Shown here one piece after another: positions 31,365-52,698 of a stretch of DNA of 64,000 bases; the first letter of the stretch is position 1, and each line of letters begins with the position of its first letter. The notes beneath the pieces are model-generated. The model was not told the DNA's origin. It did not search any database and saw nothing but the letters and a program-made list of their open reading frames with translations. The position numbers and the translations under genes are program-made. The DNA lies in NCBI GenBank assembly GCA_963707215.1, contig CAVPPB010000001.1, positions 736,001-800,000 of the forward strand, given 5' to 3'. Source of the DNA: an uncultured Chloroflexia bacterium. GTDB lineage: Bacteria; Chloroflexota; Limnocylindria; Limnocylindrales; CSP1-4.

Positions 31365-31664
31365 CTACCCCTCCTGCCGAGGCCGCCGCGGGCGGAGGAA
31401 TGGTTTCGGGCGTTCGGACGTCGGGTCGGGCGGGTACGGGCCGTCCCAGATGATCGTCTCGGGAGCGAGGTCGAGGCCGCCCGGCCAGACGAGGGTGCCG
31501 TAGTCGACCGAGACCCGGCGGAACAGGTCCTCGTCCCGAGCGAGCGGCTCGAGGACCCCCTCCCCGAGGAGGTCGGTCAGGTCGCGGTCCACCACGGAGC
31601 CATCGGTCAGGGTCAAGCGGACCGACCGGCCTTCGAGCGGCTCGACGGACTGGATCTCGATCAT
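31365..31664 (-). CDS. DUF2442-family protein (putative antitoxin)
   Basis: VEPL...LTLTDG...F..V.V..GTLVWPGGLDLAPE pattern; directly downstream of a DUF4160 gene. Confidence 0.85.
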   Translation of the reverse strand: MIEIQSVEPLEGRSVRLTLTDGSVVDRDLTDLLGEGVLEPLARDEDLFRRVSVDYGTLVWPGGLDLAPETIIWDGPYPPDPTSERPKPFLRPRRPRQEG

Positions 31665-31673
31665 GCCGGGATG

Positions 31674-32476: not shown

Positions 32477-32999
32477 CGGGCCACCGCCTTGCCGGCTTCG
32501 CGGGCGTGGGTGCAGTTGCCGCGGTAGCTGAAGCCCGGGCAGGTGCACGAGGCGACCCCGGCGACGATCCGGACGACGTTGACCTCGCCCGGGCGCGACT
32601 TGCTGGGGAACTCGATGACCCGCTCGACGTCGGTCACCGAGGCGAGCCCCCGGCCGCTCCGGGCGAGCAGGTCCAGGACGTCGCCGAGGAGGCCCATCGA
32701 GCCGCCGTCGGTCGCCGCGGCGACGCGCTCGGCCTGGACGATGCCGAGCTTCGCCCAGTCGGGCCGCTCGCCGGTCACGGCCGCCTCCACGACCGCCTCG
32801 ACGAGGCTGGCCCGGTCGGCCGCCTCGGCATCGAGGACGCCGATGAGCCGGGCCTTCTGCTCGAGCAGGGCGGCGACGAAGTCGTCGAGGGTGCCCTCGG
32901 CCACGAGGTAGGTGACGAACGCCGGCCGGGTCTGGCCGATGCGGTAGATCCGGTCCTCGGCCTGCCAGTGGTTGGCCGGGACCCAGTCGAGGTCGTTGC
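32473..32999 (-). pseudogene. 3' remnant of an SNF2-family helicase with C-terminal SWIM zinc finger (5' part missing)
   Basis: NDLDWVPANHWQAEDRIYRIGQ (SNF2 motif VI region), VTYLVAEGTLDD, SWIM CTCPGFSYRGNCTH; homology stops abruptly at ~33000. Confidence 0.8.
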
Positions 33000-33030
33000 A
33001 CCTCGGGATGGCGCGCCGGTTGCCGTGCCG

Positions 33031-34679
33031 TCAACTGCCTCGACCAACGTCCCACCCTCGATCGAGGTCCTCGCCGAGGCCGGCCGCCGCGTCGCCGACG
33101 CCTACCGAGTTGGATCCAGCGTTCCTCACGTACCTGTGAGGGCCGATGAACCCGATGTGGACCTTGCCGGTCACGCCCCCGGTGTCGTCGTAGAAGTAGA
33201 TACGCGGCGTGAGGGTCCCACCGGCTTGGGCTACCTTGATGTGCGCGTCCATCAGCTGCGTCTTCTCCCCGCGCACGCGAGGGTCGATCGGGAAGCGGCG
33301 ATCGCCGACGAACGCCTGCATCGCGGTGTCGCTGTCCGACATGGCGAGCGTGCGAGCAGTCGCGGGCCATGCAAGCGGGTGGCCCGAGTGCTCACACCAC
33401 TCCCAGAACCCGCCAGGGCGGTCGCGGTCCACGGCGTAGAGGTGCAGCGCTCGCAGAGCGTGCCAGATCTTGCGTCCCCAGACGGCGGCCTGGGGAGCGG
33501 TGTCGAGCTCGCCGACCGTCGAGGTCGCGGTCTCCGGGACGACGACGAGAGAGAGGTGCTGGCGCGCGAGACGCACGGCATCGCTGGGATCCCCAGCCGT
33601 GTCCGGCAACCCGGCTCCTGCCTGTTCGGCTGTGAGGGCTCGCTCTCCCTGCAGCTGTTGCGCGATGTACGCGACGGTGCCGCGCAGGTGCTCGTTCTCC
33701 CTCGCCGCGTCCTCGAGGTCCATGATCGCAAGGATCTTCTCGTCCTCGGCCTGCTTGGCGACGGAGCGTAGCCGTTCCGTCTCCATGACAGCCTCGTCCC
33801 ACAGCGACTCGAGTTCCTCGACCGATCGGTGCGCTCCGCTGCCCGTGAGTAGCCGGCGGACCTGCTCGTACTCCGCGGGCGCTCGACGGGCAGCGATCGA
33901 GAGTGCGAGTCTCTCCGCGATGACGCGGCCAGCGGTCTCCCACGACCTCGACGCGACGGCCGGAGGAACCACGAAGTGTCGCCATGGGGCTTCGTCGCTC
34001 CCGGCACCGGGCAGGAACACGCGCACGGCGCCGGGATCCACTGTGAGGTCCGGTCCGAGCGCCTCTGCAAGAGCCGCGACGGCATCGGACTCGAGCAGCC
34101 CGACCGACGCGACCCCCGTCAGCCTCCGGATCGTCATTCGCGCTCGCCCCTCGGCCTCGCGCTGGTCACTGCCATCGGGCGTGACGACCACGACCGGCAT
34201 GTCGCGGCCAGGATCGAGGATGAAGTCAGCGGCGATCCGAGCGGTCTCGGCGTCCCAGACCCGGTACTCCGTTCCGATCGGAACGGACCCCGCTCTGCGG
34301 GTTGCGGGCGGCCCGGAGGAGCTCCCTCACGAGCCTCGGGGGGTGAGCCTGCGGTGCTGCGAAGGCGTCCACGCACACCATCTCGAGGTCGACCCAGAAC
34401 GCCGGTCGCGCCTCCGGCGACTCCAAGACCACCAGGGTGGTGGTCCACCGCTCGTCATCGGTGTCCTCGTGGAGCACGCAGCGTAGGGCCTCCACGCCGC
34501 CCGAGGAGGCGCGAGTGACGATCACGTCCACCTTGGCACCGTCAGGCTTGCTGGCCACGCCCTCGGTCGGCGGCATGAACTGGTGCTTGCTCGCCAGCCA
34601 GTCGGCGAACTCGGCGAAGCCGCGATCGATCGCGCCTCCGGCATCCTCGCGCCAGATCGCCCGGTACGACGAGCGCCAC
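33031..34679 (-). CDS. Hypothetical coiled-coil protein with a putative RelE-like C-terminal nuclease (frameshifted)
   Basis: GGAGGAG RBS before GTG 34679; fragments YRAIW..WLASK, WTTTLVV..WVDLE..PRLVREL, PVVVVT..GAVRVFLPG, coiled coil, then HIK..PRIYFYDD..KVHIGFIGPH; the RelE call is inference. Confidence 0.6.
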
Positions 34680-34968
34680 TGCTTGCTCCTCCGTGGCTAT
34701 GCCGCAACGGCCCCGCACGTTCGGCAGGCGTACTTGAGCGTGCCCCGGACCATCCGAGGTGCCGCCAGGACATCTGCACCGAACATCCTGTCCACTCAGC
34801 CCTCTTGGGGCAAGTCGGCGCGGAGCTCCTCAACCTTGTGGTCGGTCACCAGCACGGGTCTGGCGACCACGTTGGCCGTCAGATCACGAAGCGCCCAAAG
34901 CGCGGGTCGCGCAGGCAGAGATCGCTTCCACGGCTTCGTTCTGAGCAGGACATGAACCAGTCGAGCGG

Positions 34969-37176
34969 TCACCGGGCCCCGCACGACTGGCAGATGAAGG
35001 CGAGCTTCACGCCCCGTCCCACTCGGGCGACGCGAGCACGTCCGCCCCGAACATCCGGTCGACCCAGCCCGGCTCGGATGAGCCCGACTCGAGCGACGCA
35101 GACTCGCCGGCACGAGGACCGGGACCCAACCCCGCATGTCGCACACGCATCGAGGCGCCACTGCGTAGAGCACTCTGGGCATTCGGCGGTGAAACGGCCG
35201 GCGCTGCCGTCGAAGTCCCGGTTGGCGTCGATGCGGTGGCGGACACCGTGACAGTAGTATATGCAGCAACCACGATCCAGCAGCATCGACGCCGAGCCGA
35301 CACCGTCGACGAAGGCCTGGAGACGCTCGGCCTCTGCCCGCGCCTCCATCACCGGCTCCGCGGCGGCGCAAGGACATCGGCCGGCGAAGGTTCCGCCCTC
35401 CGCGGGCCGAGCGTCCCGCGCGCTGGGCCTCGCGCAATGCCACCCCCGCGGATTCGTACTGGGCCTCGAGCTCAGCCAGGCCGAACTCGTCCCAGGCCTC
35501 GGCCGCCGCGGTGAGCATGCGGTCGATGTCCTCCCTCGGCGGGAGCGCGACCACTAGGGTCGTGCCGGCTTCCACGTGTATCCACCGGGCGCGGCGCATC
35601 GCCTCGGTGGGCGGCGTTGTGGTCGCCGGCGGATACGCCTCGAAGCGCCCGGCCATCACCGACCAGCGGAGCTGTCCGGCCGCTCGTTCCGACGCTCCCG
35701 ATGTCCCACGTCGAGACCGGGATCAACCCGGCGCGTCGGCTGGGATCGCCGGGGACCTCATGGGACAAGGCGAAGAGTCGGCGCCACAGATCGGCGTCGA
35801 ACCGACCGCTGCCTCGGCTGACGGCAGGGGTCGGGTACAGGACGACGGTCGATCGCCCGGAGTCGGCTGCCCTGACCAAGGCGTCGGCGTCGCCGGGAGC
35901 GAGTTCGGACAGCGCCGCGCACATCGGCACGATGCGTAGAGGACCGACGTCGGCGCCGTTCAACTCGATGACGCGCATCTCGTCGTCCCACGCCGCGAAC
36001 AGTGCATCCTGGCCCCGGGCACGGATCGCAAGGCGCCCGGAGTCGAGCCGGTCTTCGAGGTTGACGGGTTCGAACCCCAGTTGCTCCAAGCCGCGAAGGA
36101 CGAGCAGAAGCGCGAACCGGTGGAAGGCCAGCGACAGCTGCTGCATGTCTTCGTAGACTCCCGAGGCGTGACCCGCTCCCGGCCTAGATGCGCCCAGTCG
36201 CGCCAGAGGTCGGCGACCCGCCGATATCGGAGGTCGTCCGTAGAGGAGGTTCGTGGCGGTCAGTGATGCCCCCGACCTCGGCGCGTCTCGGGACTTCCCG
36301 GTAGAGGACCGAGTCCTTGAGGCCGCCGACACGCTGGCGGAGCAGGTCCAAGTCGCGGAGCGTTCGCTCTGCGGTCCGGCGTGCCTCGCTTGCGTCGATC
36401 GACTCGCCCCAAAGGCGATAGAGGCGTTGCTGTCGCCAGATCGAGCCGCCGGCCGTGCTGGCCCGGTAGTCGCTCGCCTCCTGGAAGACGCGGATGAGGC
36501 GAGTGACCTCCTGGATGCGATGCTCGAGGTACGTGGAGAGACGGTCGACGAGACGCGCCGCGACCCGGTTCTCATAGATGTCGAACCTGTCGTCCCGGAC
36601 GACGGCGAGGATCCGGCGCGGGACGACGGAGCGCAGCGTGCGCCGCTCCCAGTCCTCGGTGTGCGCCGCGAGGTAGTTGGCCGCGCCGGGCGCGACACGA
36701 CGGGCCCGGGAGACGGCCATCCGCTCGACCTCGACGTCGAGCTTGGTCCGGGGACGCCGGCACACCGCCTCCAGGTGCCTCAAGCGTTCCCCGAGCTGAC
36801 GCTCGTGTGGCTGGAGGTCCGCGCGTTCGGACATACCCGGCTGGAGCGGTGAGAGCTCGGTCGCGTCGAGCCACGAACCGCCCGCCTCTATGGCCTCGCC
36901 GAGTGCGCCACCCACGGCCGTGAAGCCGCGCACGTCGAGCGGATCCGGGATCTGAGCCTTGCCTATCGAACCCTCGGTGCGGGCGGCGCCATCGCCGGCG
37001 AGCGTCCAGCGGCCGCTGGCATCGGGGACCAGGAAGCTCGGGGACGTGACCGGGAACGTGTTCTGGAGAAGCAGGCCCTCTCCCGAGGGTCGCACGAGGA
37101 AGCGACCGAGGACGACGGGCTCGGTCGGTCGGTCGTCGCTCGTCCCTGTCAGCCGGTCGCGGACCTCGGCGGTCAC
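34969..37176 (-). CDS. McrC-like/DUF2357 protein with C-terminal Zn ribbons (CnuC/CnuCD-like), frameshifted
   Basis: HLEAVCRRPR..L..VSRARR..YLAAHTEDW..P.RIL...DIYENRVAARLVD (DUF2357-like); C-terminal CPEC, CATC, CQSC; GTG start overlaps the McrB stop. Confidence 0.7.
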
Positions 37177-39514
37177 GCCGTCTCGCCAGCCCCGAGTCGC
37201 CGCAGTTCCTCCCCGATGATCTGCGTCGAGCGATCCGGCTCGGTCCCTTTGCCGAGGGTCGACCACGAGTCGGTGATGCGGTCGCGGAGGGCTATCAGGT
37301 CCTCGGCCCGGTTGTCGTGTCGATCCCTGATCTTGCGCAGGAGCTTGGTCGCGAGCAACGTGGTCGACCGCCTCGCCAGCCGTGCCCCCGGAGGCCACGA
37401 CTACCGGGACGAATGCCAGCATCTGCCGCTCCAGGCGATTGCCCCAGCCGATCCCGAAGCGGCTGCCGAGGTCCTGGGCAAGCTGGTCCCGCAGGTACGC
37501 GAATGCCAGGCCGGCGACCTTGCGGTGCTTGCGCCGAGCGTCGGCAAAGGCCTGGTCGAGCGCCTGCATGGAGATCGGGTCGCGTGGTGTCGTCTCCTTG
37601 AGATCGAAGGGCTCCGGGCGGATCGGCAGCTCCATCACGTGGGCCCGGTCGAAGGTCTTGTCGGCGAAACCCATCGTCGTTTCATCGTGGTTCGCGGTGC
37701 CGAGGAACCAGACATTCGGGGGGATGGGGAGCTTCCGCCCTTCGCTGAAGAGCCGTGGCGCAGCATCGACGGCTGCCTCCATCAGGTCGAGCCTCTGGAG
37801 CTCCGGCCGCTGCTCGAGGGCCGACAGCAGGTCCGCGAAGTACTGCTCAGGGTGGGAGAGGTTCATCTCGTCAAGCACGACGAAGAACGGCCGATCTGCG
37901 TACTCGGGGCATCCCGCCTTGTAGAGAGCCTGGAGGAACTCGCTCTCGTAGTAGCGCCGCTCGAACTCGTTGAAGTGGCCGATCAGATCGTGCCGATCGC
38001 GCCAGCCGGCCTGGACCTCGATGAGCTCCATCCCGGCGCCGATAGCGCGCGCGACCGCGATCGGCAGGCTGGTCTTCCCCGTACCGCTGATGCCCTGCAG
38101 GATGTGGAGGCGGCTCATCGCCATGCCGCCGAGGAAGGCCCGCACATCTCGAGGGGAGTAGTAGAGGACGACGTCTGACCCGGGCGACGGCGACGCGATC
38201 GCGCAGATCGTCCGCGAACGCCGCTAGGTCGATCGGTTCGTCGCTCAGTCCGACCGACGACTGGAGTACCCCGCTTGCGTCCATCCCCGCGCACTGCGGG
38301 AAGGGGCTGGCGTCCTGGGCTCGGGCGATCCGCTCATCGACGTCCTGCCGCAACTCGTCGAGCGTGGCCCGCAGTGCGCTCACGTTGGTTTCGAGCGCAT
38401 CCTTGCGATCGCGCAGCGTCTCGAGTTCGAGGACCCCGATCGTGGAGCGGTCCGACAGCTCGCGTAGGGCGTTGTTCTCTTGGCGGAGTCGCCCTAGGTC
38501 CGCCTGGGCTGCCTCGAGCGCCCGTGCGAGTCCCTCGTAGCGGACCTGCTCGTCCGGGCTGAGCCTACGGGCGAGTTCGTCTCGCAGGCGGTCACGCTCG
38601 TCGGTCAGCGCGTCAATCTGGCGCTGCACTTCCTCGAGTGGCCGGTTCCCGAGTCGTCGGACCGCTTCGTCGCGATCACGCAGCTGGGCGAAGAGCCCGT
38701 CGCGCTGCTCGCGAGCGGCGGCAAGCTGTTCCTCCAGTGCGCGCTGCGTCGCTGCGGCCTGCTCGAGGGCAGCGGCCGCCATGCGCTCGACGCGAACGTC
38801 GAACTCGGCCCGATCCTCCGCGAGCAGCTGGCGGTCGATCTCCACCTGCCCGGCGAGCTTCCTTGCCTCGAGTCGCTTCGCTTCGAGTTCGGCGGTGATC
38901 CGCTCGTCTTCCTCGCGCCGCTGCTGTGCCCATGCCGCCCGCTCGGATGCGATGGTGGACCGTGCCTGGCTCAGCTCCTTCTGTGCCGCGTGGATCTCCG
39001 ACTCGAGCACGGCGAACGACTCGCGTCGCGCCGCCGCGGCCTCGGCGATGAAGCCGGCCTCAGCGTTCAGCTCGCGTGCCCGCAATTCCTCCTCGCGTCG
39101 GGAGATCTCGGTCGCCTTGTCGGCGAGGCTGGCGTCCTCGGCCTTGGCCCGTTCGAGCAGTTCCTTCGCGAGGGCATGTTGGGCCCGGGCTTCCTCTTCC
39201 CGCCCGCTGACCTCGCTCGCTCGCCGATCCAGATCCGCCTCGCGGCCGTCGAGCCGCTTCTCTCGGGAGTCGCTCAGGGTGACCGCCTCTTGCGCCTTCT
39301 TCGCAAGCTCGCCGAGACTGCCCTCGTCGCTCGGGCCTGCCGAGCGTGCGGCGGCTTCGATCTCGTCCGGGAGCGCTGCGCCGCGAGCGGTCTCGAGGGC
39401 CTGGGTGATCTGCGCGGCCGCGTTCTGCTGGACCTGGGGCCGCTGCACGGGCCGCTGCGGACCAGCGGGGCGGGGCTGCTGACCCGTCCGGGACCGACTC
39501 CTTCTCTTCGTCAC
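37173..39514 (-). CDS. Coiled-coil + McrB-family AAA+ GTPase (CnuB-like), frameshifted near 38160 and 37360
   Basis: ~400-aa heptad-rich N-terminus; Walker A LQGISGTGKTSL, Walker B VVLDEMNL, EQYFADLLS, GTANHDET (NxD), DKTFDRA. Confidence 0.85.
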
Positions 39515-39542
39515 GATCTCCTCCCCTTGAGGTCAGTCTCCC

Positions 39543-41085
39543 CTAGTCGCAGAGGCCTGTCAGCAGCCCGACGGTGCTGTACACCTCGTCGGCGACGGCG
39601 AGCGCATGCTCCCTCGTCACGCCACCTGGTCCGTGGACCGCGCCCCCGCCGCTCTCGGCGAGTTGGTCGAGGCGTTCGAGGAAGTCGGGATGCGTCACGC
39701 CGATCCGCCTGAAAGGGTGGGCCTCGTCCGTACCGGCCGCTAGGACCGAAGCCACGATGCTCGGTCGGAGGCGCCACCCGTTGCCCTCGCACGCCGCCTT
39801 GACCTGAACCGCTCTTACGCGCACCAGGGGTCTCGGGATCGGCAGCCGGAAGGCCGAGAGCGCTCGCCGTCGCCTCGAGGATCTCGCGACACAGCTCCTG
39901 GTCCTTGATCGGCTCCCTGCCGTTGTAGAGGGCACGCCATGCCTTGGTCACCGGGTGCTCGGAAGCGACGGCCGCGAGCGCCTCCTCGAGGACCGTCCGT
40001 GCCGTCTTGACGAGATCCTGGAGGCGGAAGCTCGGGTATGAAGCGCCCAACTGGCCGGCCTCGACGCAACCGATCTCCATCTCCACCAGGCGCTCGAAGT
40101 ACGAAAGGCTCCGCGCAGCCAGCGAGAGGCGCCGCTCCACGTTGCCCTCGGCCTCGGTCCGTACCTCGGCGGTCCACCGGCGCTGGGCCTCGACCTGGGC
40201 GGCGAGAGAGTCACCGATCATGTGCCCGATGAAGTCGTCCAGGCCCGTCGAGCGTTCGGCCTCGCGCTCGATCGCACGGCGCAGGTCCATCGAGAGGCCG
40301 AGCCCGAACGGATCGCACGTGAGCCACTCGCCAGGGGCGTCGCTGCCCTCCTGAAGGTAGACGTACGTCGTGAGGAAGACCGGCGTCGGCTCGCTGTCGA
40401 CGACCGAGACCCGGTCGAACCGGCCCGCGTGGGTGCCGGTCGGCATCTCGTCATCGTCGCCCTCGTCATCCCCCGGCTCGAGGCCTCGCAGCGCCCATCG
40501 GTGGCGGCGAACGGCGCGAAGGATCTCGGCAGTCCCCGGGATAGCTGCGACCGACTCGCGAGGGAAGACCCAGAAGGCCGTCTCTCGGCGGGGACGACCC
40601 TTCGAGCCGAGCACGAGCTTCGGGTAGGCCGTGCCCACATGCTCGACGTCGGCGTAGCTGAGCGTCTCCATCACCCTGGGCCATAGGGACCCCGTCCAGG
40701 GGTCCTGGAAGACGTGGCTGGCGACCAGCGTCTGGGAGCCGAACGCCTCGTCCTCGAACATGGCACGCCCTTCCTCGGTGGGTAGTCCGTGCTGGTCGAG
40801 GAGCCTCCGTTCCTGGAGCTGCAGGACGATCTGTGCCACGAGGTCACGCTCGATCCGCATCAGCGACCCGATCCGGTCCAGGCCCGTGGTGCCCGACCGG
40901 CACAAGCCGATGACGGCCTTCTCGATCACGTTCAAGCGCCGCTCGCGTGCCTCCGGCGCCACGACGCGATACAGGAGCGCGGGCCACAGGAGGAAGCGAC
41001 GCGCGGAGTACCGCGTCCCCGCCGGGTGGCGGGGCCCGAAGTACAGGACCGAACAGTCAACCCCGAACGATCGCACCGAACTCAC
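39543..41085 (-). CDS. wHTH + degenerate HEPN-like protein (CnuE-like), frameshifted near 39850
   Basis: N-terminal wHTH-like LNVIEKAVIGL..IGSLM.IERDLV..IVLQLQ..LL..PTEEG; VFQDPWTG.LWP; helical C-terminus ending LDQLAESGGGAVH; lies between helicase and McrB. Confidence 0.6.
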
Positions 41086-44000
41086 CGCTGCACAGCTGAT
41101 GGAAGGCGACGAGCCCGCGGACGTGCTCCCGAGCCGCCTGCCCGGTCAGCATCCCGGCATCGCCGACGGCGACGAGGAGACACTGCTGCCGACTCATCGC
41201 GACGCACATCCGGTTCTCGAGCGCGATGTGTCCCCACTTGCGCCGGGCCGCCTTCTCGTCGACGGGATCGATGTCGTTCGAGCGGGTGACCGACAGCAGG
41301 ACGACGTCGAACTCCTTGCCCTGGAAGGCATCCACCGTCCCGACACGCAGTCGTTCCCGAAGCTGACCATCTGCACCGCGTGTCTCGAGCCACGGGCTCG
41401 CGACGCGGTAGTAGCCCTCGTCGGTCCGCTCCGAGAGCCCGAGCGGCTCCATGGCGCGCAGGATCTCGTCGACCTGAGCGGAGTAGAACGAGATCACTCC
41501 AAAGCTCAGATCTGGGCGGGCTCGGCTGAGGCGGTCGATCTCCTCGGCGATCCATCGTGCCTCAGGGGTCCGCCGTTTGCTCAGCCCGCCCGACTCGTGG
41601 CCCCGCTCGAGCGGGATGTCGACCCACGCGGCGACGAGCCCTTCGTAGCCGGGGAGGTCGTTGGCGAACCCTTCCGCCGGCCTTCCAGAGGCGAAGCTCT
41701 CGCCGTACGGCTCGTAGAAGGTCGCGCTGACGAAGTTGCCCAGCGCGGGGTGCATCCGGTACTGGACGTCGAGGGTGACGGTCGCTTTCACGCCGTCGGA
41801 CGCCTCGCGCGCGCGTAGCTGGACGAAGAGCCTCTCGAAGAGGCTCTGCTTGAGCGCGTCTCGCGTCGCTTCGACGATGGACCGGTCCGCCTGGCGCTCG
41901 ACATCCGGCTCGAGGATGTGGGGAAGCTGACGGTGATCCCCGACGAGGATGATCCGGCGTCGTCCACGCGCCATCGGGATGAGCAGATCGAGCGGGTTGG
42001 CGCGCGCGGCCTCGTCCACGATCACGTTGGCGAACGCTGTGCCCTCGGTCTTTTCCACTCTCATCTGCGAGCCGACGGCCTGCTGACACGTTGCCGCGAG
42101 CACCGCGGTGTAGGCGCGGACCGCCGACCTGACGCCCTCGACGTCGTTATCGAGATCGTCGAGGTACTCGTTGAGCGCGATCGCCTCACCCCCCGCGCTC
42201 TCGCGAGCGACGCGGGAGAGCTCGTCGGTGAGCTCGATCAGCAGATCCGCGACCTCTCCGTGAACGGCGGGTGCGCCCGGCGACATCTCCGGGGTGAGCC
42301 GATCGACCAGGGCGCCCTGGAGCGCCGCGATCTCGTGCAGGAAGGGGGGAGGATCGGCCGAGTCCCACTCGGCCGCGGCTCTGAGCAGTTGCGACGACTC
42401 GTCATCCGCGAGCCCGGCGAGCTCCAGGCGTCTGAGGGCGCGTGCGGCATTGTGTGGCCCATCGTCCCCGAAGCCGGCCGGCTCGGTACGGAGGGCCCGG
42501 ATGGCGCGCAAGAGGGCTTCGCGCTCGTCGTCGGCTGACCCGACGATCGGCCGCTGCGAGCGCGACAGCTCCATTCGGAGCTGCGCGACGCGGTCCAGCA
42601 GGCGAGGCGGGATGAACTCACGAGAGATGTCGGCGACCTCGTCCAGAACGCGCAGGCCCTCCCGGCGATCGATCGGAGCCGCGACATAGGCGGCCGTCAG
42701 GCGGCGGATCCGGCGGAGGGCGGCGTTCACGGGGTACTCGTCGATCGCAGCGAGGTCGCCCCGGAGCGCGTCGATCCGCTCGCGTCGCCATCGGTCCACG
42801 CCGTCGTCCGGTTCGCGGCCGAGCCGACCGCCGACCTTGACCGCCGGCAGCCCGAATACGATCGTCTTGGACGCCGCGTTCTCCACCGCATCGTGCTGGT
42901 AGCTCGTCAGGAGGGTCTGGCCCGCGAGGTCGAGCTGCTCGCCGAGTTCCGCAAGTCGGACCTCGAGGGCAGCGATCATCTTGGTCTTCCCTGTTCCGGG
43001 AGGACCCTGGATCAGGGCGATGTCGGGCGTGTTGAGCGCGACTCGCAGGGCCTCGATCTGGCGCGGGGTCGGATCTGAGCCGAAGACCGAGCGGACACCG
43101 CGCGACAGCGGGCTCTCCATCCTCCGGCGCCGGAGCGGCACGGGCCGGTCCTCCAGGATCAGGCCGAGCTGAGGCATCGCGGCCTCCGCAGAGACCACCC
43201 GGGCCAGAGCTTCTTCTCGGCGATTGAGGCGGGTGCGGTCCCCGCTCAGGCTGAGGAACAGCAGCCCACGCTCAGGCGGGTCGACTGCGTCGTCGCCGCC
43301 CTGCGGTTGCACGAACAGCAGTCGCCGTGGGACATCCCGGTGGGCGTAGGCGCCGACGAAGGTGCGCGGACGACGCTCCGCGCGCGTGATGGCGGCGTCC
43401 GGGCCGGCGGTCACCTCTTCATCGGTGGCGAGCTCGAGCGGGAGACTCGTCGCGGCCTCGAGGTCGGTGATCTCCTCCGCGCCTCGCAGGACGTCGAGGG
43501 CCCGTTCGAAGCGCGCTGCGTCCTCGATCCGAAAGCTCCAGCGGCCATCCGCGAGGCGCTGGCGGCTGTCGTATCGGAGGACGCCGAGCTCGCGCGCCCG
43601 TCTCGCAACGCTCGCCCGCTCGAGTTTGTTGTACTCGCTCCACAGACCAAGGTAGCTGCCAGCACGCGCCACCAGTTGGTCGAGCTGGGTCTCGGCGGAT
43701 CCGCGGAATGACCCTGCGATCGTGGCGTCACGAAAGATGACCGGCGCTCGGACCACCTCGATGGCGCTGGAGAGCTCTGCTTCGCGCCCACGCTTGGCGG
43801 CAACGACGCGGCTAACGAGGAGGCGGTCCTCTGCGTCGCGAGTGACGTCGATCGCGAACCCGCGGCCCATCAGCCGGAACTGCCGACGCTCCTGTGCCCC
43901 GCGATCCGGGCCGCCCGTCAGGAAGATGCAAGGCGGTCCGTTCGACGATGTCAGCGTCAGGTGGTCGTCCAGCCATCGGGCGACCTCGTCGACGGCCATG

Positions 44001-44389
44001 ACATGACCGAGCCGCTCCCCGAGCGACTCGACGATCTTCTCGTCGACCCCGATCTCGATGGTGTCGGACCAGTCCTGCCGAGCCGGGAACTCGTGCACCT
44101 GGACGAGCGCGGACTCGCTCACGCCCGCCCTCGGTCGCGTCCCGAGGATCCATGCGATCCTTGGCAGGTCTCGATCCCGCAGCTCCGATAGGGCCAGCTT
44201 GGCGCGGACATCGACCCCGTCGACGTGCCAGCCGTCCTGGCCGACGCGCAGCAGCGCGTCGCCCGTGGCGTCCGAGAAGAGGAGCTCGGCCTCGGTCTTC
44301 GGAGCCAACCCCGTTCCGAAGTCGGCATCGAGTGCGGGCCGGACCTCGACGGTCCTGGTCTGGCCGTACGGCAGCTCGTGGAACCTCAC
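41057..44389 (-). CDS. UPF1/DNA2-like superfamily 1 helicase (CnuH-like)
   Basis: QGPPGTGKT, IVDEAAR, VGDHRQLP, SLFERL, QYRMHP, ISFYSAQ, GTVDAFQGKEFD, NRMCVAMSR. Confidence 0.92.
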   Translation of the reverse strand: MRFHELPYGQTRTVEVRPALDADFGTGLAPKTEAELLFSDATGDALLRVGQDGWHVDGVDVRAKLALSELRDRDLPRIAWILGTRPRAGVSESALVQVHEFPARQDWSDTIEIGVDEKIVESLGERLGHVMAVDEVARWLDDHLTLTSSNGPPCIFLTGGPDRGAQERRQFRLMGRGFAIDVTRDAEDRLLVSRVVAAKRGREAELSSAIEVVRAPVIFRDATIAGSFRGSAETQLDQLVARAGSYLGLWSEYNKLERASVARRARELGVLRYDSRQRLADGRWSFRIEDAARFERALDVLRGAEEITDLEAATSLPLELATDEEVTAGPDAAITRAERRPRTFVGAYAHRDVPRRLLFVQPQGGDDAVDPPERGLLFLSLSGDRTRLNRREEALARVVSAEAAMPQLGLILEDRPVPLRRRRMESPLSRGVRSVFGSDPTPRQIEALRVALNTPDIALIQGPPGTGKTKMIAALEVRLAELGEQLDLAGQTLLTSYQHDAVENAASKTIVFGLPAVKVGGRLGREPDDGVDRWRRERIDALRGDLAAIDEYPVNAALRRIRRLTAAYVAAPIDRREGLRVLDEVADISREFIPPRLLDRVAQLRMELSRSQRPIVGSADDEREALLRAIRALRTEPAGFGDDGPHNAARALRRLELAGLADDESSQLLRAAAEWDSADPPPFLHEIAALQGALVDRLTPEMSPGAPAVHGEVADLLIELTDELSRVARESAGGEAIALNEYLDDLDNDVEGVRSAVRAYTAVLAATCQQAVGSQMRVEKTEGTAFANVIVDEAARANPLDLLIPMARGRRRIILVGDHRQLPHILEPDVERQADRSIVEATRDALKQSLFERLFVQLRAREASDGVKATVTLDVQYRMHPALGNFVSATFYEPYGESFASGRPAEGFANDLPGYEGLVAAWVDIPLERGHESGGLSKRRTPEARWIAEEIDRLSRARPDLSFGVISFYSAQVDEILRAMEPLGLSERTDEGYYRVASPWLETRGADGQLRERLRVGTVDAFQGKEFDVVLLSVTRSNDIDPVDEKAARRKWGHIALENRMCVAMSRQQCLLVAVGDAGMLTGQAAREHVRGLVAFHQLCSGEFGAIVRG

Positions 44390-45763
44390 GCCTGTCTCGC
44401 TCGTTCCATGCGGAAGGTCGCCACCCGATGCAGGACGCCCGCGTCGCCGAGGTGAAGTCGCCAGGACGCGCCCCTGAGGTCGATCTCCCGAGTCCGCTCG
44501 TCCAGGTCCACCGACTTCCCGCCGCTCGGTGGCACGAGGCGATAGGAGGACTCGTCGAGGGCCCGCAGCGATACGCGCGTCCCGTCAAACGCCATCGCCA
44601 GGACCGGCAGCTGCCCGGCCGAACCGCTTCGCCCTCGGGCGATCCGGTCGGTCACGATCACGGTCTCCCCGGGGGGCAGGGCGAGGGTCGCAACCGACGG
44701 ACGGCGCCTCTTCGCTCCGGCCTCGGCCTCGGGGTCCGAGAGGATGAATGAGGCGAGCACGAACGTCGGCCTTGCCTCGTCGCACCAAGGGCAGACGGTG
44801 GCGTTCATGTAGTAGGTGGCCCCACAGGTGGGGCACGTGAGGGTCGCGTCAGACGCCGCGTGCAACCGCAATGCCCACTCGGCGACGCCGGGCCTGCGTT
44901 GCGGGTCCTGTAGGCCGAGCCCGAATGATCGGGCCGCAAGGTCGGCGAGGAGGCGCGAGAGCACGACCGGTCGAGCGATGCCCACTGAGGCACGGTTCCG
45001 CGAGTCGGCCGCGTCATCGATCCAGGGTAGGTCTCCGGCGAATGCGGCATCCTCGAGCTCCGGGGGGCCTTCGGCCACCAGGTCGCCGATGAGCGGATGG
45101 GCGAGCGAGAGTGTCTGGAACGCAATCACGGCGAATGCATGGGCGTCGCTCCAGCGAGCTCGCACCGGTCCTGGCCCGAACCAACTCGGGGGCGCCGAAC
45201 CCGGGCGTGTACACGACCCCCGCCCCGAGCGAGGAAGCCGATCTCAGGTTGTCGGCGTCGATCATGCGGACCTCGACGGCGTCGCTCGGTGCGGAGACGA
45301 AGATGTTCTGCGGCGACGGGTCTCCGTAGATGAGGCCCTTGCCGTGGAGGGCCGCGAGCGCGTCCGCGGCACGAGCGAGCAGTCGCAAGCGTCGCCGCAG
45401 TCCGCCCGCGGCGAGGTACCACGCCGCCGGCGACTCCATCCCCCTGGGCACGTAGGCGAGAGAACCCAACGGCTCCATCCCGGTGAGAAGCTCCATGACG
45501 TACCCAAGGTGAGGCTCCTTGAGCACCTCGATCGGACGCGCCACGTCCAGCCCGCCGAGATCCAGCCTGCGCACACGGGTCAGCTGGTTGCGGAGACGGT
45601 CTCGCGTGGAGGGAGCGGAGTCGGCGAGAAGCTTCGCCGCGAGAAGGCCGCCCTCGACCTCGTACACCACTCCCTGGCCCCCACGGCCGATCTCGCGAAC
45701 GAGTCGGTACCGGACGCCTGTGTCATCGGTCACGATGAGGTCGCGCGTTCCGCCCGCGGTCAT
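44386..45763 (-). CDS. Ser/Thr protein kinase with Zn ribbon (TerY-P kinase), frameshifted near 45150
   Basis: GRGGQGVVY, AAKL, YGDPSPQNIF, IDADN, TPGFGAPE, SDAHAFAV, CPTC..CPWC. Confidence 0.88.
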
Positions 45764-46470
45764 GAGTCCCGGGCCCACAGAACCGCGAGTGTCTTGTCGT
45801 CAAGATGTCGAGGCGTCGGCCAATCGGTCAGCTCGCTCCGGAGGGCACGCAACCGGGGAACGGGGTCGAGCCCAGCGAAGGACTCGACGAGCCACGCCGC
45901 GAAGTCACCGACGCGGTCGGGCAGCAGATCGTCCGAGACACCGTCCGTGGCGAGCACGACGGTGTCGCCCGGGCGCCACGGCTGCGTCCGGAGGCTCCAC
46001 GTCGCCCCTGAGCCGAGTGCCGTGGCATCGGTCGCGAAGCCCGCTCGCGGCCCACTCACCCACTCGACGGCGCCGTCGGCGCTGCGTACGACCGCCAGGC
46101 CGTCGCCCACTGCCCCGATGTGGACGGCCCCGTCCGGGCAGACCACTGCGAAGAGGCATGTCGCCGCGCAGTCGTCCCCGGTCGCCGGCGCGATCTCCTC
46201 GAGCCACAGCTCCTCGATCAGCCGAGGGAGTTCATCGGGTGCACCGTGCCCGGCCTTGTGCCACAGGCGCACGGCTCTCGCGCATGCACGACACGCCGCG
46301 GCGGCCCCTCGACGAGCCAACGGTCGCGATCCCACCCCATCACTCACGACAGCGAGGCTCCCATGCGAGCCGGTGGCAGAGAGCCAACGATCCTCGTTCG
46401 GGAGGCCGAGATCGCGGTGTGCCGGGCCGATGACGCTGGCCCCGAAGCAGACCGTCGTCACGTGATCCAC
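45760..46470 (-). CDS. PP2C-family phosphatase (TerY-P)
   Basis: GASVIGPAH..PNED, VSDGVGS, VGDG, LATDGVSD, DDKT. Confidence 0.9.
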   Translation of the reverse strand: MDHVTTVCFGASVIGPAHRDLGLPNEDRWLSATGSHGSLAVVSDGVGSRPLARRGAAAACRACARAVRLWHKAGHGAPDELPRLIEELWLEEIAPATGDDCAATCLFAVVCPDGAVHIGAVGDGLAVVRSADGAVEWVSGPRAGFATDATALGSGATWSLRTQPWRPGDTVVLATDGVSDDLLPDRVGDFAAWLVESFAGLDPVPRLRALRSELTDWPTPRHLDDKTLAVLWARDS

Positions 46471-46478
46471 GACCGGAC

Positions 46479-47142
46479 CTAGAAGAGGATCTCGTCGAGC
46501 GGCGGAGGATCGATCGCGATGATGGAGTCAGGACTCTCGCTGCGGAGTCGCGTTGTCACGCTCATCGTCACCCACCGGAAGAAGGCCCGGATGTGGCGGG
46601 CCTCATGTGCTGCGAAGACTCTCGCTTCGGGGGTGGCAAGGAACCTTGCGAGCATCGCCCCGTCCGCATCGTCTCCGATCCCGAGCGCGAACCGGGAGGC
46701 CTTCATCGCCCGTTCCGAGTTCAGCAACCGCTCGAGGGGCGCCTCCCATTCGTCGTTCGGCTGGCCATCCGAAACCAGAACGACGGTCGGACGGTAGGCG
46801 CGACCGGGAATCTGGTCACGGTCCTCCAGAAGGTCCGTGACCAAGTCGAATGCGGCTCCCATCGGAGTGCCCCCCGCGGCTTCCATGGGCACCCAATCGA
46901 CGGCGGGCGCGGGCGTTAGCTCCTGGTGGAGCCGCGCAGCCCCTCCGCCGAAGGTGATGATCGCGACCTCGATCGAGGCGCGCGTGTCGTCCTCCTCGGC
47001 AAAGGACCCCAGCATCTCCTGGACGGCCAGGTTGAGCGCGTCGATCTTCCCGTTCGTGCTCATGCTGCCGCTGACGTCCGCGAGGATGAGTACGGGGAAG
47101 CGGACGTGGGGTCGAAGCCGTGAACTCACGCAATCCGCCCAT
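46479..47142 (-). CDS. terY: TerY-like vWA-domain protein (frameshift near the 5' end)
   Basis: GGGAGGGGG RBS + ATG 47142 (MGGLREFTASTPRP..); MIDAS DVSGSM, GGTPMG, YRPTVVLVSDGQPND, FFRWVTMSV. Confidence 0.85.
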
Positions 47143-47552
47143 GATTTAATCCCCCTCCCGAGTCCGGCTCTGCCGCGCCCGCTGATGCTGAGACGAGGCC
47201 TCGCCTGTCACGCTATCTGCCGTCGGTGCCAGCTGTGTGGCACCGTGAGGGTCGGTCACGCGCATCTAGAGACGCCCGTCAGCCGCCAGTATCCCTCCTT
47301 GAGAAGGCGCAGCGACGGTCGCTCCGGCCTGACTCACCTGTGCGACTCGTCCCAACGTATCGGCTGTTCTCTGGCCACGAGCAGCTCGACGCGGCTTCCT
47401 GTGGCTCCGAATCCCGCTTCGGCCGACTCTGTGCGCCACCACACGAACCCGCACGCCTGACATGCGGACGGCCACATGGAAGATTCGCGGGCGGAAGACT
47501 GGGCTCGGACCCGAGTTGCTGTGCCGCAGAGCCAGGCCTGCACGGTCCATGC

Positions 47553-50500
47553 CTACCCCGCCCTCGCCGGGCACATCGCCCGGAAGTCGCACCAGCTCGC
47601 AGGTCTTGCCGCCCTTGACCGGCGTCGCCGCGAAGTCGCCCGAGCGGATCCGGGCCGCCCGCGCCAGGATGTCCTCGCGGGCCGCGTCGAGCTGCTCGTC
47701 GGTCCGGGTCGTCGTCATCCGGGTCGCCGCCTCGGTGAAGTAGAGGGTCACCCGCTCCGGCGTCCCGAGGCCCAGCGCGTCGCGGCAGGCCAGCGCGTAG
47801 ATCGACAGCTGGAGGCTCTCGTCCACGCCCTTCTGGCTGCCGGGCCGGCCGGTCTTGTAGTCGAGGACCTCGATGCCGCCCGAGGCCAGCCGGTCGATCC
47901 GGTCGATCGAGCCGTGGACGCGTCACCGGCGGCCGACCCGTCGGCCGGCTCGAGGACGAGCTCGAACGGCTCCTCCTCGCCGAGCACCTCGCGGCCGTCG
48001 GCGGCGAGCTCGCCCTCCCAGAACGCGTCGAGCAGCGGGCCGGTCCGGGCCCGGTAGCCGTCCTCGGCGGCCTTGGTCGCCGTAGGTGCCGGGCTTCCAC
48101 TCCTCGGCGAAGAAGCCGCTCGAGGTCCTCGCGGGTCGGCGGCGGCTCGCCCCGGGCCGCTCGCTCGCGTCGCTCCTTGGTGAACCGCTCGAAGGCGGCG
48201 TGGGCGGTCGAGCCGAACGTCAGGGCGGCCCGACCCTCCGGCTCGGGGAAGCGGTAGACGTGGCGGAAGGCGTACTGGAGCGGGCAGCGCTCGTAGACGG
48301 TCGAACTGGCTGTAGCTGAAGCTGCCGGCGGAGGGCGGCGACCTCGAGCAGGTTCGCGCCCGAGCCGCTGTCGAGGGCGACGGTCCGCATCGTCAGCGGA
48401 TCGAGGCCGCGGTCTCGGGCCTCGTCGGCGGTCATGGCCGCCGGTCCCCGATGCGGGCCAGCTCGGCGGCCAGGGCGCGGCGGGCGTCCTGGGTCTCGGG
48501 GTCGGCCGGGCGGGTGCCCTCGATGAGCCCGAGCAGCTCGGATGCCCGTGACACGCAGCGCCAGGCGGTGCTCTCGGGCGGTCGGCAGGGGCATGACCTG
48601 GCGGAGGGCGCGGTCCTGGGTCCGAGCGGCCGCCTCGTCCGTCTCCGCCTCGTCCTCGTCCGTCGTCCTCCGCCTCGGCGGCCTCGCTCCGCCTCGCCCG
48701 CCTCGATCTCGCTCGACATCCGCTCCGGAGCTCCGGCCCCGCCCCCTCCCGCAGCTCGAGCACGAACGGCGAGACCCGCCGCTCGACCGTCGGACCCTCG
48801 TGGGTCGTGAGCATCAGGCGCTCCCGGGTCCGGGTCATCGCGACGTAGAGGAGGCGGCGCTCCTCCTCGTTCAGCAGGTCGCCGACCGGGACCGGCTCGC
48901 GGAGGAGCTCGCGCGGGAGGATCTCGGCAGACTCACGGCCCACCGGCCACTCCCCGTCGAGCAGGCACGGGACGAAGACGAACGGGAACTCGAGCCCCTT
49001 CGCCTGGTACAGGGTCATGAGCCGGACCCCGTCCACGTCCTCGGTCAGCTCGACGCTCGTCGGCAGCTCCCCGCCGGCGGTCTTGTACGCATCGAGGTAG
49101 TCCACGAAGGCCGCCAGGCTGCCCTGCGGGTGCTCCTGCTGCCAGTCGGCCGCGAACCGCAGGAACGAGGCGACGTTGGCCGCCTGCCGCTGGCTCTCTC
49201 GCGTGTCCGCCGCGATCGAGGTCGAGGACCGTGCCGGTCCGCTCGAGCAGCTCCTGGAGGATCGTGTGCGGCCCCTCGCGCCAGGTCCTGGGGGCGAGGT
49301 CGTCGATCGTGTCGAGGACGCGGCGCAGCTTGGCGCGGGTCAGCGGGGCGATGGGCTGGCGGGTAGGGGGCGCATGGCCGGCGGGGGGCGCTGGCGGCGG
49401 GGCTCCGGGGTGGGGTCTCCTCCTGCGGTGCCCGTCCACGCAACTCGACGGCCTCGGATGCCGCGTCCGGCCATGCGGGTATGCCCAGAGTCGAATAGCG
49501 CTCGGAAGGGTCGCCCCCCTCCTCGCCCTCCTCCTCGGAGTCGCGCCGCATGTCGCGCTCGGCCAGGAGATCGAGGGTCCGAGGCTGGAAGCCGCCACCG
49601 ACCCCGCCCTGACCGTCGCCGCGACCGTGGCCGTCGTCGCCGTTGTCGCCGTTCTCGCCGTCGGCCCCGGCAGCGCCGCTCGCGCCGATCTCGCCCGGAC
49701 GCGTCGTCAGCACCGACCCGGTCTCGACGACGTCGCGCATGGCCTCGACGATGTGGCGCCGGTCGTAGCGGGCCATCCGGGCAACGGCCAGGATCTCGAG
49801 CGCGTCGAGCCGCCACGGTGCCGGCGGAGAGCATCCGCAGGAGCGCCACGTCCTGGTGCGGGTCGGCGATGGCGCGGAGGGTCTGCTCGAGGTCGCGGAT
49901 CTCGGGCGTCTCGAAGAGCGACAGCCCGACCGACGACGGTGTACGGGATGTCCTCGTCGCGGAGCCGGGCGACGATCGCCTCGCGGTGGCGGTGCTTGCG
50001 GTAGAGGATGGCGACGTCCCACGGGAGGGCCGGGGCGCGGTCGGGGCCGGGGTCCCACTCCGGCGGGCCGCGATGCGGTCCACGATCGTGACCGCCTCGT
50101 CGGCCGGGCCGGTGCAGACCACCAGCTCGACCGGGGCCTCGTCGCCGCGCCGGGTCCGCAGCCGCTTGTCGGGCTCGTAGCGCATGACGTTCCGCTCGAT
50201 CAGCCGGTTGGCCGCCGCCAGGACGTGCCGCCGCGAGCGATGGTTCTCCTCGAGGCGCAGCCGCGTCGGCGGCCCGGGCGGCGGTCCGCCTCGGGATCGT
50301 GGATCGGCGGCAGGGCGAAGCGGCGGTCCATCTCCGCGAACGCCGCGTAGCTGGCGCCCCGGAAGCGGTAGATCGACTGGTCGTCGTCGCCGACGACCAT
50401 GACGTTGTCGGGCCGGTCGGGCGTCCGGCCGAGCAGCTCGACGAGCTCGATCTGGGCGACGTTGGCGTCCTGGAACTCGTCCACCAGCAGGTAGCGGAAC

Positions 50501-51621
50501 TGGCGCTGGTAGCGGCGCAGGACGTTGGGCCGCTCGCGGAAGAGGCGGATGACGGCGGCGATCTGCTCCCCGAAGTCGAGAGCCCCTCTCCGGTGCAGCT
50601 CCTGCTGATACGCCCGGTACACCAGGGCGAGCTCACGGAACCGGAGGACCTCGAGGGCGGCGCCGTCTACCACGTACGTCCGGGCGAGCTCGGCGATCTC
50701 GGCCTGCTCGTCCTCGGTGAAGGTCTTGATGTTGCGGACCTTTCCGTCGCCGGCGACGCTCCGCCGTGCCTCTCGGTCGGCCGTCTTCCAGACGTCCTCG
50801 TCGGAGGGCTCCAGGCCGAACGGCTTGGCGGCCTCGGCTCGGACATCGCGGCGGTAGCGGGCATAGGCACTCCGGACATCCCGGACCGGCCGCAGGTTGC
50901 CCATCGCCCCGAGGCGCTCGATCGCCGGCTCGAGCGGGCCGTGCTCGGCCTCGAAGGCTTCCTGCTCGGCCTCGGCGAAGGCCTCGACCTGGTCGGGCGT
51001 GACGAGCTCGTCCTTGGCCCGGTTGATGAAGGCGACCATCTGGCCGAGCCAGAAGCCACCGTCCCCGCCGCGGCTCGAGTGGTAGACGAGCGGCAGGTCG
51101 GGCCACAGGTCGCGCAGGAGGAGCAGCTGGCCGACCCCGTCGAGGACGTCGGGGCGCTGGGAGAGGCCCGCTTCCGCGGCATGCTCGGTGAGGATCCGGT
51201 GGCAGAAGCTGTGGAAGTTGCTGACTGCAAGACGGGCAAGGGTCGCCGGCCCCAGGGCGGCCTCGAGGCGGTCCTGGAGCTCCTTCGCGGCCTTGACGTT
51301 GTAGGTCAGGACGAGGATCTGCTCGGGGACGAGGGGGCCGTCGAAGGGCGGCGCGTGGCGGCCAGGTCGTGCGGCTGCCGCGTCGGGGGGCGCGTCGGGG
51401 GCCCCGGCCCAGGCGGCCTCCCCCTGCGTCTCGAGCAGGTGGCGAACCCGTTCGACGATGACCCGCGTCTTGCCCGTCCCCGCACCGGCGATGACGACGA
51501 GCGGCCCCTCGTCCCACTCGACGATCGCCCGCTGCTCGTCCGAGAGCGCGGGGCGGCCGGAGGTGGGCTCCGTCGGCTCGGGCGATGCGTCGGGGGGCAT
51601 GAGCGGGGGGAGAGAGCTCAT
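47553..51621 (-). CDS. UvrD/PcrA-like SF1 helicase fused to a PD-(D/E)XK Fe-S nuclease (AdnB/AddA-like), several frameshifts
   Basis: AGAGTGKT, LVDEFQD, VGDDDQSIYRFRGA, MTLYQAKGLEF, EERRLLYVAMTR; nuclease YERCPLQY, IDR, DYKTG, QLSIYA, C..WCDFRAMC. Confidence 0.88.
49473..49494 (-). repeat. Dispersed 22-bp motif, copy 3, inside the UvrD CDS
   Basis: Reverse complement TCGACTCTGGGCATACCCGCAT, read in frame as YSTLGIPA. Confidence 0.8.
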
Positions 51622-52690: not shown

Positions 52691-52698
52691 TAGCCGGC

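Follow-up and report, generated by a model that had tools for sequence, protein, structure and literature searches.

A 64,000-nucleotide stretch of DNA from an uncultured Chloroflexia bacterium (GenBank assembly GCA_963707215.1, contig CAVPPB010000001.1, positions 736,001 to 800,000; here the window, 72% G+C) carries on its minus strand, at positions 34969-47142, an operon of seven co-oriented, abutting or overlapping genes that is very probably a Type II CoCoNuT. CoCoNuTs (coiled-coil nuclease tandems) are a computationally defined, McrBC-like subclass of Type IV restriction systems (Bell et al., eLife 2024, PMC11090510; statements attributed below to this source and to the Mokosh report, 10.1101/2022.05.11.491447, refer to the consulted parts of each). 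Types II and III-A carry cnuH, cnuE, cnuB, and cnuC, and nearly all CoCoNuTs with cnuHE also include the TerY-P triad, that is, a vWA protein, a PP2C-type phosphatase, and a Ser/Thr kinase (PMC11090510). An initial annotation, made from the sequence alone, had proposed a TerY-P triad joined to a CoCoNuT-like system. The CoCoNuT assignment can now be sharpened to Type II, whereas the joining is not new, because the gene order is the one drawn for Type II in PMC11090510 and a related locus, L013 (contig JABFRG010000827.1), is already on the "Type II CoCoNuT" sheet of Supplementary file 3 of that paper. Likewise, the statement that TerY-P is sometimes found next to CoCoNuTs was too weak, given its near-universal presence among cnuHE-bearing members in that source. 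The operon is therefore best regarded as a fairly divergent new copy of a catalogued kind.

Organization of the operon

The seven genes, in their order along the operon, are the following.

46479-47142, minus strand: TerY-like vWA protein with the MIDAS motif DVSGS (VWA_2, 3.6e-10; VWA, 5.5e-9; PADLOC TerY, 4e-5); one frame break
45760-46470, minus strand: PP2C-type phosphatase, 236 aa (PP2C_2, PF13672, E 1e-35); intact
44386-45778, minus strand: Ser/Thr kinase with a C-terminal zinc ribbon, STK-ZnR (Pkinase, 6.4e-7); one frame break
41057-44389, minus strand: CnuH, UPF1-like superfamily 1 (SF1) helicase, 1110 aa (AAA_11, 4e-25; AAA_12, 2e-29); intact
39543-41085, minus strand: CnuE, predicted elongated winged helix-turn-helix (wHTH) protein with one HEPN-like C-terminal domain, ~513 aa; one frame break
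37173-39514, minus strand: CnuB, coiled coil followed by an McrB-like GTPase (AAA_5, 2.5e-5); two frame breaks
34969-37176, minus strand: CnuC, McrC-like protein (DUF2357, 1.2e-3) with a C-terminal zinc ribbon, ~735 aa; five frame breaks

The gene identities, the seven-gene order, and the coordinates of the initial annotation are borne out by Pfam and PADLOC profiles and by tblastn searches with orthologous open reading frames (ORFs). Both end coordinates are correct to the base: the cnuC stop codon ends at 34969, and the vWA gene begins with the ATG at 47142. Gaps separate only the vWA and PP2C genes (8 nt) and the cnuE and cnuB genes (28 nt). The PP2C and kinase genes overlap by 19 nt, the kinase gene and cnuH by 4 nt, and cnuH and cnuE by 29 nt; cnuB and cnuC share a GTGA in which the cnuC start overlaps the cnuB stop. 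The seven genes are co-transcribable. A scan of positions 34300-47600 yielded no promoter-like sites and two terminator-like sites, both on the opposite strand, as in shuffled sequence.

The TerY-P triad and the CnuH helicase

The ATG at 47142 is preceded by a Shine-Dalgarno-like GGGAGGGGG run, and the first 16 residues of the vWA protein agree with those of its orthologues; the frame opened by this ATG reads MGGLREFTASTPRPLP and then shifts into the 47129 frame, with the break in a C4 run near 47093. By tblastn, the vWA protein is 66-68% identical to the L009-L015 orthologues, the phosphatase 57-58% identical to its orthologues, and the kinase 53-68% identical to those of L009, L010, and L015. 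The kinase break, at ~45151, divides two collinear tblastn segments in different frames that match single orthologues of 466-489 aa. The translations contain the motifs GRGGQGVVY, AAK, and YGDPSPQN in the kinase, with the zinc ribbon CPTC...CPWC behind it, and SDGVGS and ATDGVSD in the phosphatase; from general knowledge of these families, we take these motifs and the vWA MIDAS to be the catalytic ones.

The helicase CnuH, 56-59% identical to the L009, L010, and L015 orthologues (tblastn), has all the expected motifs, namely, Walker A GPPGTGKT, DEAAR, VGDHRQLP, QYRMHP, and the C-terminal motifs. In its Type II form, CnuH is described as a UPF1-like helicase that carries a helical insertion as well as SmpB-like, RNase-toxin-like, and OB/stalk domains (PMC11090510). 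An AlphaFold2 model of residues 1-450 (36-row alignment; predicted local distance difference test score [pLDDT], 77.6) contains three beta-rich domains before the helicase core, probably a small beta-barrel, an RNase-toxin-like domain, and an OB/stalk. When this model was compared with 48,161 chains by VIA-align, the matches were to an EF-Tu domain 2/Upf1-like barrel and to a colicin-D tRNase-like domain. When the CnuH N terminus was compared with the PDB by Foldseek, nothing reached E <= 0.001; Upf1, at 3.4e-3, came closest. In the number and order of its modeled domains, CnuH appears to agree with the SPB-RTL-OB-helicase scheme of PMC11090510, and the modeled N-terminal barrel seems no closer to SmpB than to HIRAN, which reads 3' ends.

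CnuE, CnuB, and CnuC

Type II CnuE is described as an elongated wHTH protein with a single HEPN domain that bears an RxxxxH motif, conserved "in most cases" (PMC11090510). The window's CnuE is 38-48% identical to the L009, L010, and L015 orthologues (tblastn), with a frame break at ~39840, and its fold was modeled on the intact L015 orthologue (48% identical; pLDDT, 84.5), giving a wHTH and a HEPN-like domain; a Foldseek search with CnuE against the PDB had no match at E <= 0.001, with MarR and Csm6 the best at 0.2-0.8. The HEPN histidine is present in all 42 full-length CnuE orthologues, shifted by one in L039, and a second histidine (HP motif, H468 in L015) is nearly invariant. The arginine is another matter: it occupies the canonical column in 18 of these orthologues and forms Rx5H in 3, whereas in 21 there is none 4-6 residues upstream. 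Across the CnuE orthologues L009-L059 the arginine splits by lineage. The canonical class, with R[ND]xxxH, is mostly cyanobacterial; the Arg-less class comprises the window, its nearest relatives, and most myxobacterial, proteobacterial, and planctomycete loci.

CnuB consists of an N-terminal coiled coil of ~430 aa followed by the GTPase, with Walker A GISGTGKTS, Walker B VVLDEMN, and the signature GTANHDET. Residues 61-400 are 61% A/E/R/L with 3 prolines in 340 aa, and their windowed 3.5-residue hydrophobic periodicity is 0.48, compared with 0.16+-0.06 in shuffled sequence and reached by 0 of 1000 shuffles. Composition and periodicity thus identify the N terminus as a long predicted coiled coil. 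PADLOC profile PDC-M26A matches CnuB at 8.6e-36, and there is a weak match to LmuB (SMC-like) over residues 122-396. The CoCoNuT GTPase is characterized by an NxD variant of the McrB signature, usually followed by E or D (PMC11090510). In HMMER, GTANHDET aligns without gaps to GTMNTADRS of the Thermococcus McrB structure 6ut3, which places the Asp one residue earlier; the motif is therefore NxD, as the initial annotation had read it, and is followed by Glu. The GTPase is 66-69% identical to the L009, L010, and L015 orthologues (tblastn), and the two frame breaks lie at ~38200 and ~37358.

In Type II, CnuC is a reduced form of McrC: a beta-sandwich stands at its N terminus, its PD-(D/E)xK nuclease is inactivated, and it has a zinc ribbon but no Hsp70-like unit (PMC11090510). 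The first 300 aa of the window's CnuC are 55-60% identical to the L009-L015 orthologues; beyond them, weaker collinear segments continue in changing frames up to the stop at 34969. The protein is collinear with orthologues of 733-764 aa and ends in a zinc ribbon with CPEC, CATC, and CQSC. Its breaks lie at ~36280, 35695, 35370, 35120, and 35018; two of them fall in G runs, a G5 and a G4. The near-invariant columns that follow DUF2357 and precede the zinc ribbon read LPVSPxDIxSVER. A CnuC profile searched against solved structures returned chance-level matches (best E, 0.063) and no McrC.

Downstream of the operon lies a partial second copy of the cnuC 3' end.

34700-34807, minus strand: second, diverged copy of the last ~35 cnuC codons (direct repeats D1, 78%, and D5, 84%)

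Set 266-268 nt beyond the real 3' end, this copy follows a stop and includes the final CxxC; the tails of orthologous CnuC proteins match both the real end and the copy (tblastn). It probably either remains from an earlier cassette or marks a past recombination event.

Relatives of the operon and its assignment to Type II

With CnuH as the query, 70 loci were retrieved from species-representative genomes and 79 from metagenomes. The best genome loci belong to Myxococcota, Betaproteobacteria, Planctomycetota, and Cyanobacteriota, with CnuH 40-59% identical to that of the window, and in the metagenome loci the best identity is 57-60%; with a best match of 59-60% across both sets, the earlier description of a divergent copy holds. 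The gene order given in the initial annotation is conserved: protein pieces from the window, used in tblastn, located all seven genes in the same order and strand in 30 of the 70 genome loci and out of order in none, the remaining 40 being cut by contig ends or too distant for tblastn. Judging from these comparisons, the arrangement is far beyond chance.

The published catalogue provides the type. Its Type II sheet has columns for RtcR, TerY, PP2C, STK-ZnR, and SPB-RTL-OB-CoCo-Helicase, and besides L013 it holds Accumulibacter, Microbispora, and cyanobacterial loci like those retrieved here (PMC11090510). L013 is 58% identical to the window in CnuH, 65% in the GTPase, and 58% in the CnuC N terminus. 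In a quick maximum likelihood tree of 44 GTPase-domain rows, which includes no Type I, III-B, or III-C references, the window's GTPase grouped with L013, as the proposed placement of this McrB among CoCoNuTs predicts, in a 39-row clade (SH-like approximate likelihood ratio test [SH-aLRT], 100). The same clade contains three Actinomycetota loci, one of them from Microbispora, of which another strain is on the Type II sheet. A separate clade of 5 rows, set apart by long branches, comprises Acinetobacter, Alishewanella, Methyloprofundus, Marinospirillum, and Treponema; L074, from this clade, is Type III-A-like, in that it encodes a CnuE of 679 aa and a CnuC of 1243 aa that matches DUF2357 and, weakly, a cold-shock domain, as PMC11090510 reports for Type III-A.

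The operon shares with Type II the gene content and order, the overlapping frames, and a short DUF2357 CnuC with a zinc ribbon and without a nuclease signature (PMC11090510). It differs in lacking RtcR and a sigma-54 DNA-binding domain in the genome as assembled (84.8% complete), in lacking the HEPN arginine, in residing in a 72% GC host outside the phyla of its nearest relatives, and in its ten frame breaks and downstream relic of a second cnuC tail. In Type III-A, TerY-P, CnuH, CnuE, and CnuB follow one another as they do here, CnuB again being a coiled-coil NxD protein; its CnuE, however, has two HEPN domains, and its long CnuCD includes Hsp70-like and HEAT-like parts but lacks a zinc ribbon (PMC11090510). 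Membership in Type III-A was considered and dropped on account of the short CnuC with its zinc ribbon; the GTPases also form separate clades, and the sizes of the window's CnuE and CnuC fit Type II. Two observations weigh against the Type II assignment: the Pkinase match (29.5 bits, below the 31.7-bit cut-off) and the Pfam matches for DUF2357 and the wHTH family score under the curated cut-offs, and in the quick tree a long branch (0.55) leads to the window, for which no closest neighbor has good support.

Among systems with experimental anti-phage evidence, the nearest relative of the operon is Mokosh type I, which protects Escherichia coli from phages and needs both its helicase ATP site and its nuclease (10.1101/2022.05.11.491447). 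Common to the two are a UPF1-like COG1112 helicase, a Ser/Thr kinase that goes with it, and an effector gene located downstream. The PADLOC profile MkoA hits CnuH (7e-87) and the kinase (2.6e-4), and the profile MkoB hits the CnuE N terminus (2.7e-4); by these profile matches, the kinase/helicase/wHTH-effector core is homologous to that of Mokosh type I. In Mokosh type I, however, the kinase is fused to the helicase (MkoA) and the effector MkoB is a phospholipase D (PLD) nuclease, whereas here kinase and helicase are encoded by different genes and a search of the seven operon products yielded no PLD domain. Mokosh type I also has no vWA, PP2C, or McrBC-like pair (10.1101/2022.05.11.491447), all of which are present in the operon.

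The operon also differs from the stand-alone TerY-P triad, with which it shares the vWA, PP2C, and Ser/Thr kinase genes, in that the triad is embedded in a larger unit. That stand-alone triad is reportedly a defense system, an attribution to Gao et al. in 2020 that comes through the CoCoNuT paper. In its defense version an OB fold follows the kinase (PMC11090510), whereas here the kinase is followed by the zinc ribbon.

Another possibility is that the operon is a classical McrBC, i.e., a GTP-driven, modification-dependent DNA endonuclease to which the helicase and TerY-P are accessory. Like the canonical systems of E. coli and Thermococcus gammatolerans (6ut3-6ut8), it has an AAA+ GTPase core that aligns to solved McrB, with Walker A and B and the sensor Asn, and, immediately downstream, a partner with the McrC N-terminal DUF2357. 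Canonical McrB, however, has NxxD and a DNA-binding N-terminal domain, where CnuB has NxD and a coiled coil; canonical McrC has an active PD-(D/E)xK site, where CnuC has no recognizable one and its profile matches no McrC among solved structures; and the operon has five extra genes. Given that Type II CnuC nucleases are inactivated according to PMC11090510, we consider the classical function very improbable and retain the Type II assignment.

Host genome and acquisition

The assembly comprises 3.26 Mb in 5 contigs and is 84.8% complete by marker genes, a figure that applies to every genome-wide negative given here. The host's order also includes a genus with genomes of 1.0-1.4 Mb. An actinobacterial host was considered and dropped: WhiB had no match in the genome, and among solved structures RpoB scored 1357-1490 bits against Bacillota enzymes, compared with 1307-1344 against actinobacterial ones. 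By these profile scores, the 72% GC host is probably not an actinobacterium.

The G+C content at third codon positions (GC3) of the operon genes is 0.82-0.885, corresponding to the 0.4th-13th percentile of 2055 coding segments of the genome (median, 0.92), whereas the flanking phosphoenolpyruvate carboxykinase (PEPCK) and helicase-nuclease genes have a GC3 of 0.92-1.0. No CnuH orthologue was found in 40 related genomes, 6 of which gave weak partial matches of 30-38% identity. Together, the low GC3 relative to the host and the missing orthologues suggest that the operon was horizontally acquired. A tRNA scan of the window found none, and no integration site was identified.

RtcR, a CARF-sigma54 activator encoded upstream, is frequent in, although not defining for, Type II CoCoNuTs (PMC11090510), and its family (PF06956) was found in three of the five genomes behind the closest loci. 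In the host genome neither RtcR (PF06956) nor Sigma54_DBD nor a convincing sigma-54 activator was found, and the gene upstream of the vWA gene encodes a UvrD/PD-(D/E)xK helicase-nuclease instead. Since neither RtcR nor sigma-54 was found in the genome at this completeness, expression of the operon cannot depend on them. In kind, the locus brings little novelty; it is a case of Type II moved into a very GC-rich lineage that lacks RtcR and where sigma-54 was not found either. Two points are worth keeping, namely, that the host is without RtcR and detectable sigma-54 and that half of the sampled orthologues are missing the HEPN arginine.

Frame breaks

Orthologue-guided tblastn and alignments mapped ten frame breaks to five genes, leaving the PP2C gene and cnuH as the only single open frames of the operon. 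Errors of the assembly are, in our judgment, clearly the likelier cause, because neighboring housekeeping genes are broken as badly. All ten disruptions are indels; no in-frame stop was found in any operon piece. Furthermore, both sequence similarity (40-70% identity) and codon periodicity run on across each break.

A census of 22 orthologous gene pairs (346 kb, two relatives) yielded four frame changes in 2 of the 22 genes. This was too small a sample, and a hidden Markov model (HMM) of codon usage, trained on 582 long ORFs, was used instead to count same-strand frame switches. Across the 2.94 Mb of coding sequence it flagged 525 switches that resemble frameshifts (0.18/kb). Of the 26 in the window, only 4 are in the operon; 10 fall in the UvrD/PD-(D/E)xK helicase-nuclease gene (47.9-50.3 kb), 6 in the pyruvate:ferredoxin oxidoreductase gene (62.8-63.8 kb), and 3 in the PEPCK gene (29.6-30.6 kb), and the others are at 34280 and, in the NERD-UvrD gene, at 53480 and 53987. 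Because the model caught 4 of the 10 operon breaks mapped by homology, its counts are lower bounds everywhere.

Alternatively, the operon could be a decaying pseudogene: a CoCoNuT gained by horizontal transfer, released from selection by now, and on its way to loss through real frameshifts. Several observations fit this scenario. Homology places 10 breaks within 12.2 kb, of which CnuC alone accounts for 5, and the HMM count in the operon is ~1.8 times the genome-wide expectation (4 versus 2.2). The system is not shared with the 40 relatives, what is left of a second cnuC 3' end follows closely downstream, and in the CnuC zinc ribbon CCIYYCHG stands at the place of the first CPxC. The genome and metagenome collections scanned with CnuH contained no near-identical contig or intact twin. 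On the other side, the Poisson probability of at least 4 switches with 2.2 expected is ~0.18, so that the excess is not remarkable; the neighbors are hit as hard or harder, in a genome with about 525 such events, assembled in 5 contigs and 84.8% complete; no homologous frame contains a nonsense codon; coding periodicity and similarity are unbroken across every break; and the 3.3-kb helicase gene and the PP2C gene are intact. Taken together, these observations make decay unlikely. Location in homopolymers was dropped as proof of artifact, as only three of the ten breaks clearly lie in C4, G4, or G5 runs. If assembly errors are the cause, the many "indels" here are a property of the assembly and not of the operon, which calls for caution in scans. 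In this assembly, frames have to be corrected before any gene is interpreted.

Predicted mechanism

In line with the initial annotation, which called these systems computationally described and largely untested, the system is described computationally in PMC11090510 and literature searches turned up no experimental paper on any CoCoNuT. Following the authors of that paper, we infer every step of CoCoNuT action from the protein families. The kinase, phosphatase, and vWA protein of the TerY-P triad would act as a phosphorylation switch that licenses the complex. CnuH would then load and translocate on RNA and hand it to CnuE, while a CnuB hexamer with CnuC would form a GTP-driven motor ring, tethered through the coiled coils. 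The predicted outcome is RNA-directed restriction or abortive infection. Candidates for the cutting step are a variant HEPN site that keeps the two invariant histidines and the RelE/colicin-D-like domain of CnuH. The ATPase motifs of CnuH and the GTPase motifs of CnuB are intact.

The family-based derivation of these steps is itself a reason for reserve, and for this copy the cutting step is less certain. The HEPN motif of the window's CnuE is ESGGGAVH, with no Arg 4-6 residues before the conserved His, and in 27 CnuC rows a conserved D...(D/E)xK is absent from the near-invariant columns. With the HEPN Arg missing and no such site in CnuC, neither an RNase nor a DNase mechanism is secured for this copy. 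The nuclease complex proposed in the initial annotation is therefore less secure for this copy than for the type as described. Because HEPN has lost its Arg while retaining two histidines and CnuC is without a PD-(D/E)xK site, it is conceivable, albeit doubtful, that this copy and the myxobacterial, proteobacterial, and planctomycete subclade, being devoid of a canonical nuclease, act unlike the published RNase model. They might rely on variant HEPN chemistry, on the RelE/colicin-D-like domain of CnuH acting on ribosome-bound RNA, or on non-cleaving arrest driven by the helicase and GTPase.

The same features could point away from restriction, to a device for stress response or RNA quality control in which TerY-P senses metals or stress and the UPF1-like helicase is directed at aberrant host RNA or at ribosomes that have stalled. 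PMC11090510 connects TerY-P triads with metal sensing and tellurite resistance and notes that SmpB-like and RelE-like domains in CnuH point to the translation apparatus, as would the EF-Tu domain 2/Upf1-like barrel and the colicin-D tRNase-like domain from the fold search; the degenerate nuclease motifs of this copy fit as well. However, the core is homologous to that of Mokosh type I, which is anti-phage in E. coli and requires its helicase ATP site (10.1101/2022.05.11.491447), the locus is foreign in composition and patchy in distribution, and the adjoining defense-like genes (HEC-07-like, SNF2 fragment, NERD-UvrD helicase) are typical of defense islands. A stress device is accordingly improbable, and a defense function of the Type II CoCoNuT remains the preferred interpretation.

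CoCoNuTs are widespread and large, and well-described members help in the choice of constructs. About half of the sampled CnuE orthologues, that of the window included, do not have the HEPN arginine that underpins the "RNA-cleaving" prediction, a point treated briefly in the published catalogue; therefore, tests of Type II should take representatives of both motif classes.

Neighboring genes

Apart from the operon, the following features of the window were annotated.

295-3453, minus strand: adenylate/guanylate cyclase fused to a STAND/NB-ARC-type NTPase, 1053 aa (weak PADLOC PycC match, 2.8e-6)
7359-8720, plus strand: PAS-cyclase
29290-31085: PEPCK (GTP); three frame switches
31434-31667, minus strand: DUF2442 gene, adjoining the SNF2 fragment
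32479-33021, minus strand: SNF2 C-terminal ORF, 181 aa, matching the C-terminal ~60 residues of DpdE, ZorD, and DrmD (best, 9e-10)
33031-34281, perhaps to 34684, minus strand: HEC-07-like gene (PADLOC HEC-07, 1.6e-15; weak NsnC match)
47279-51579, minus strand: UvrD-type helicase with a C-terminal PD-(D/E)xK nuclease, AddA/AdnB-like; at least 10 frame switches in 2.4 kb, the densest in the window
52575-54454, minus strand: NERD and UvrD-like helicase (PADLOC RTasNERD-Hel, 1e-18, 5e-12, and 1e-9 in three pieces); two frame switches
61938-64000: pyruvate:ferredoxin oxidoreductase; six frame switches

The HEC-07-like gene had no homologue beside any of the 70 related loci. Its GC3 of 0.829 (0.7th percentile) makes it as foreign as the CoCoNuT genes. 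Because the HMM places a frame switch at 34280, this gene and the 134-aa segment upstream of it may be one gene. The adjacent SNF2 ORF is probably a gene fragment, since its match is limited to the C-terminal ~60 residues of the related proteins; its GC3 is very high, at 0.99.

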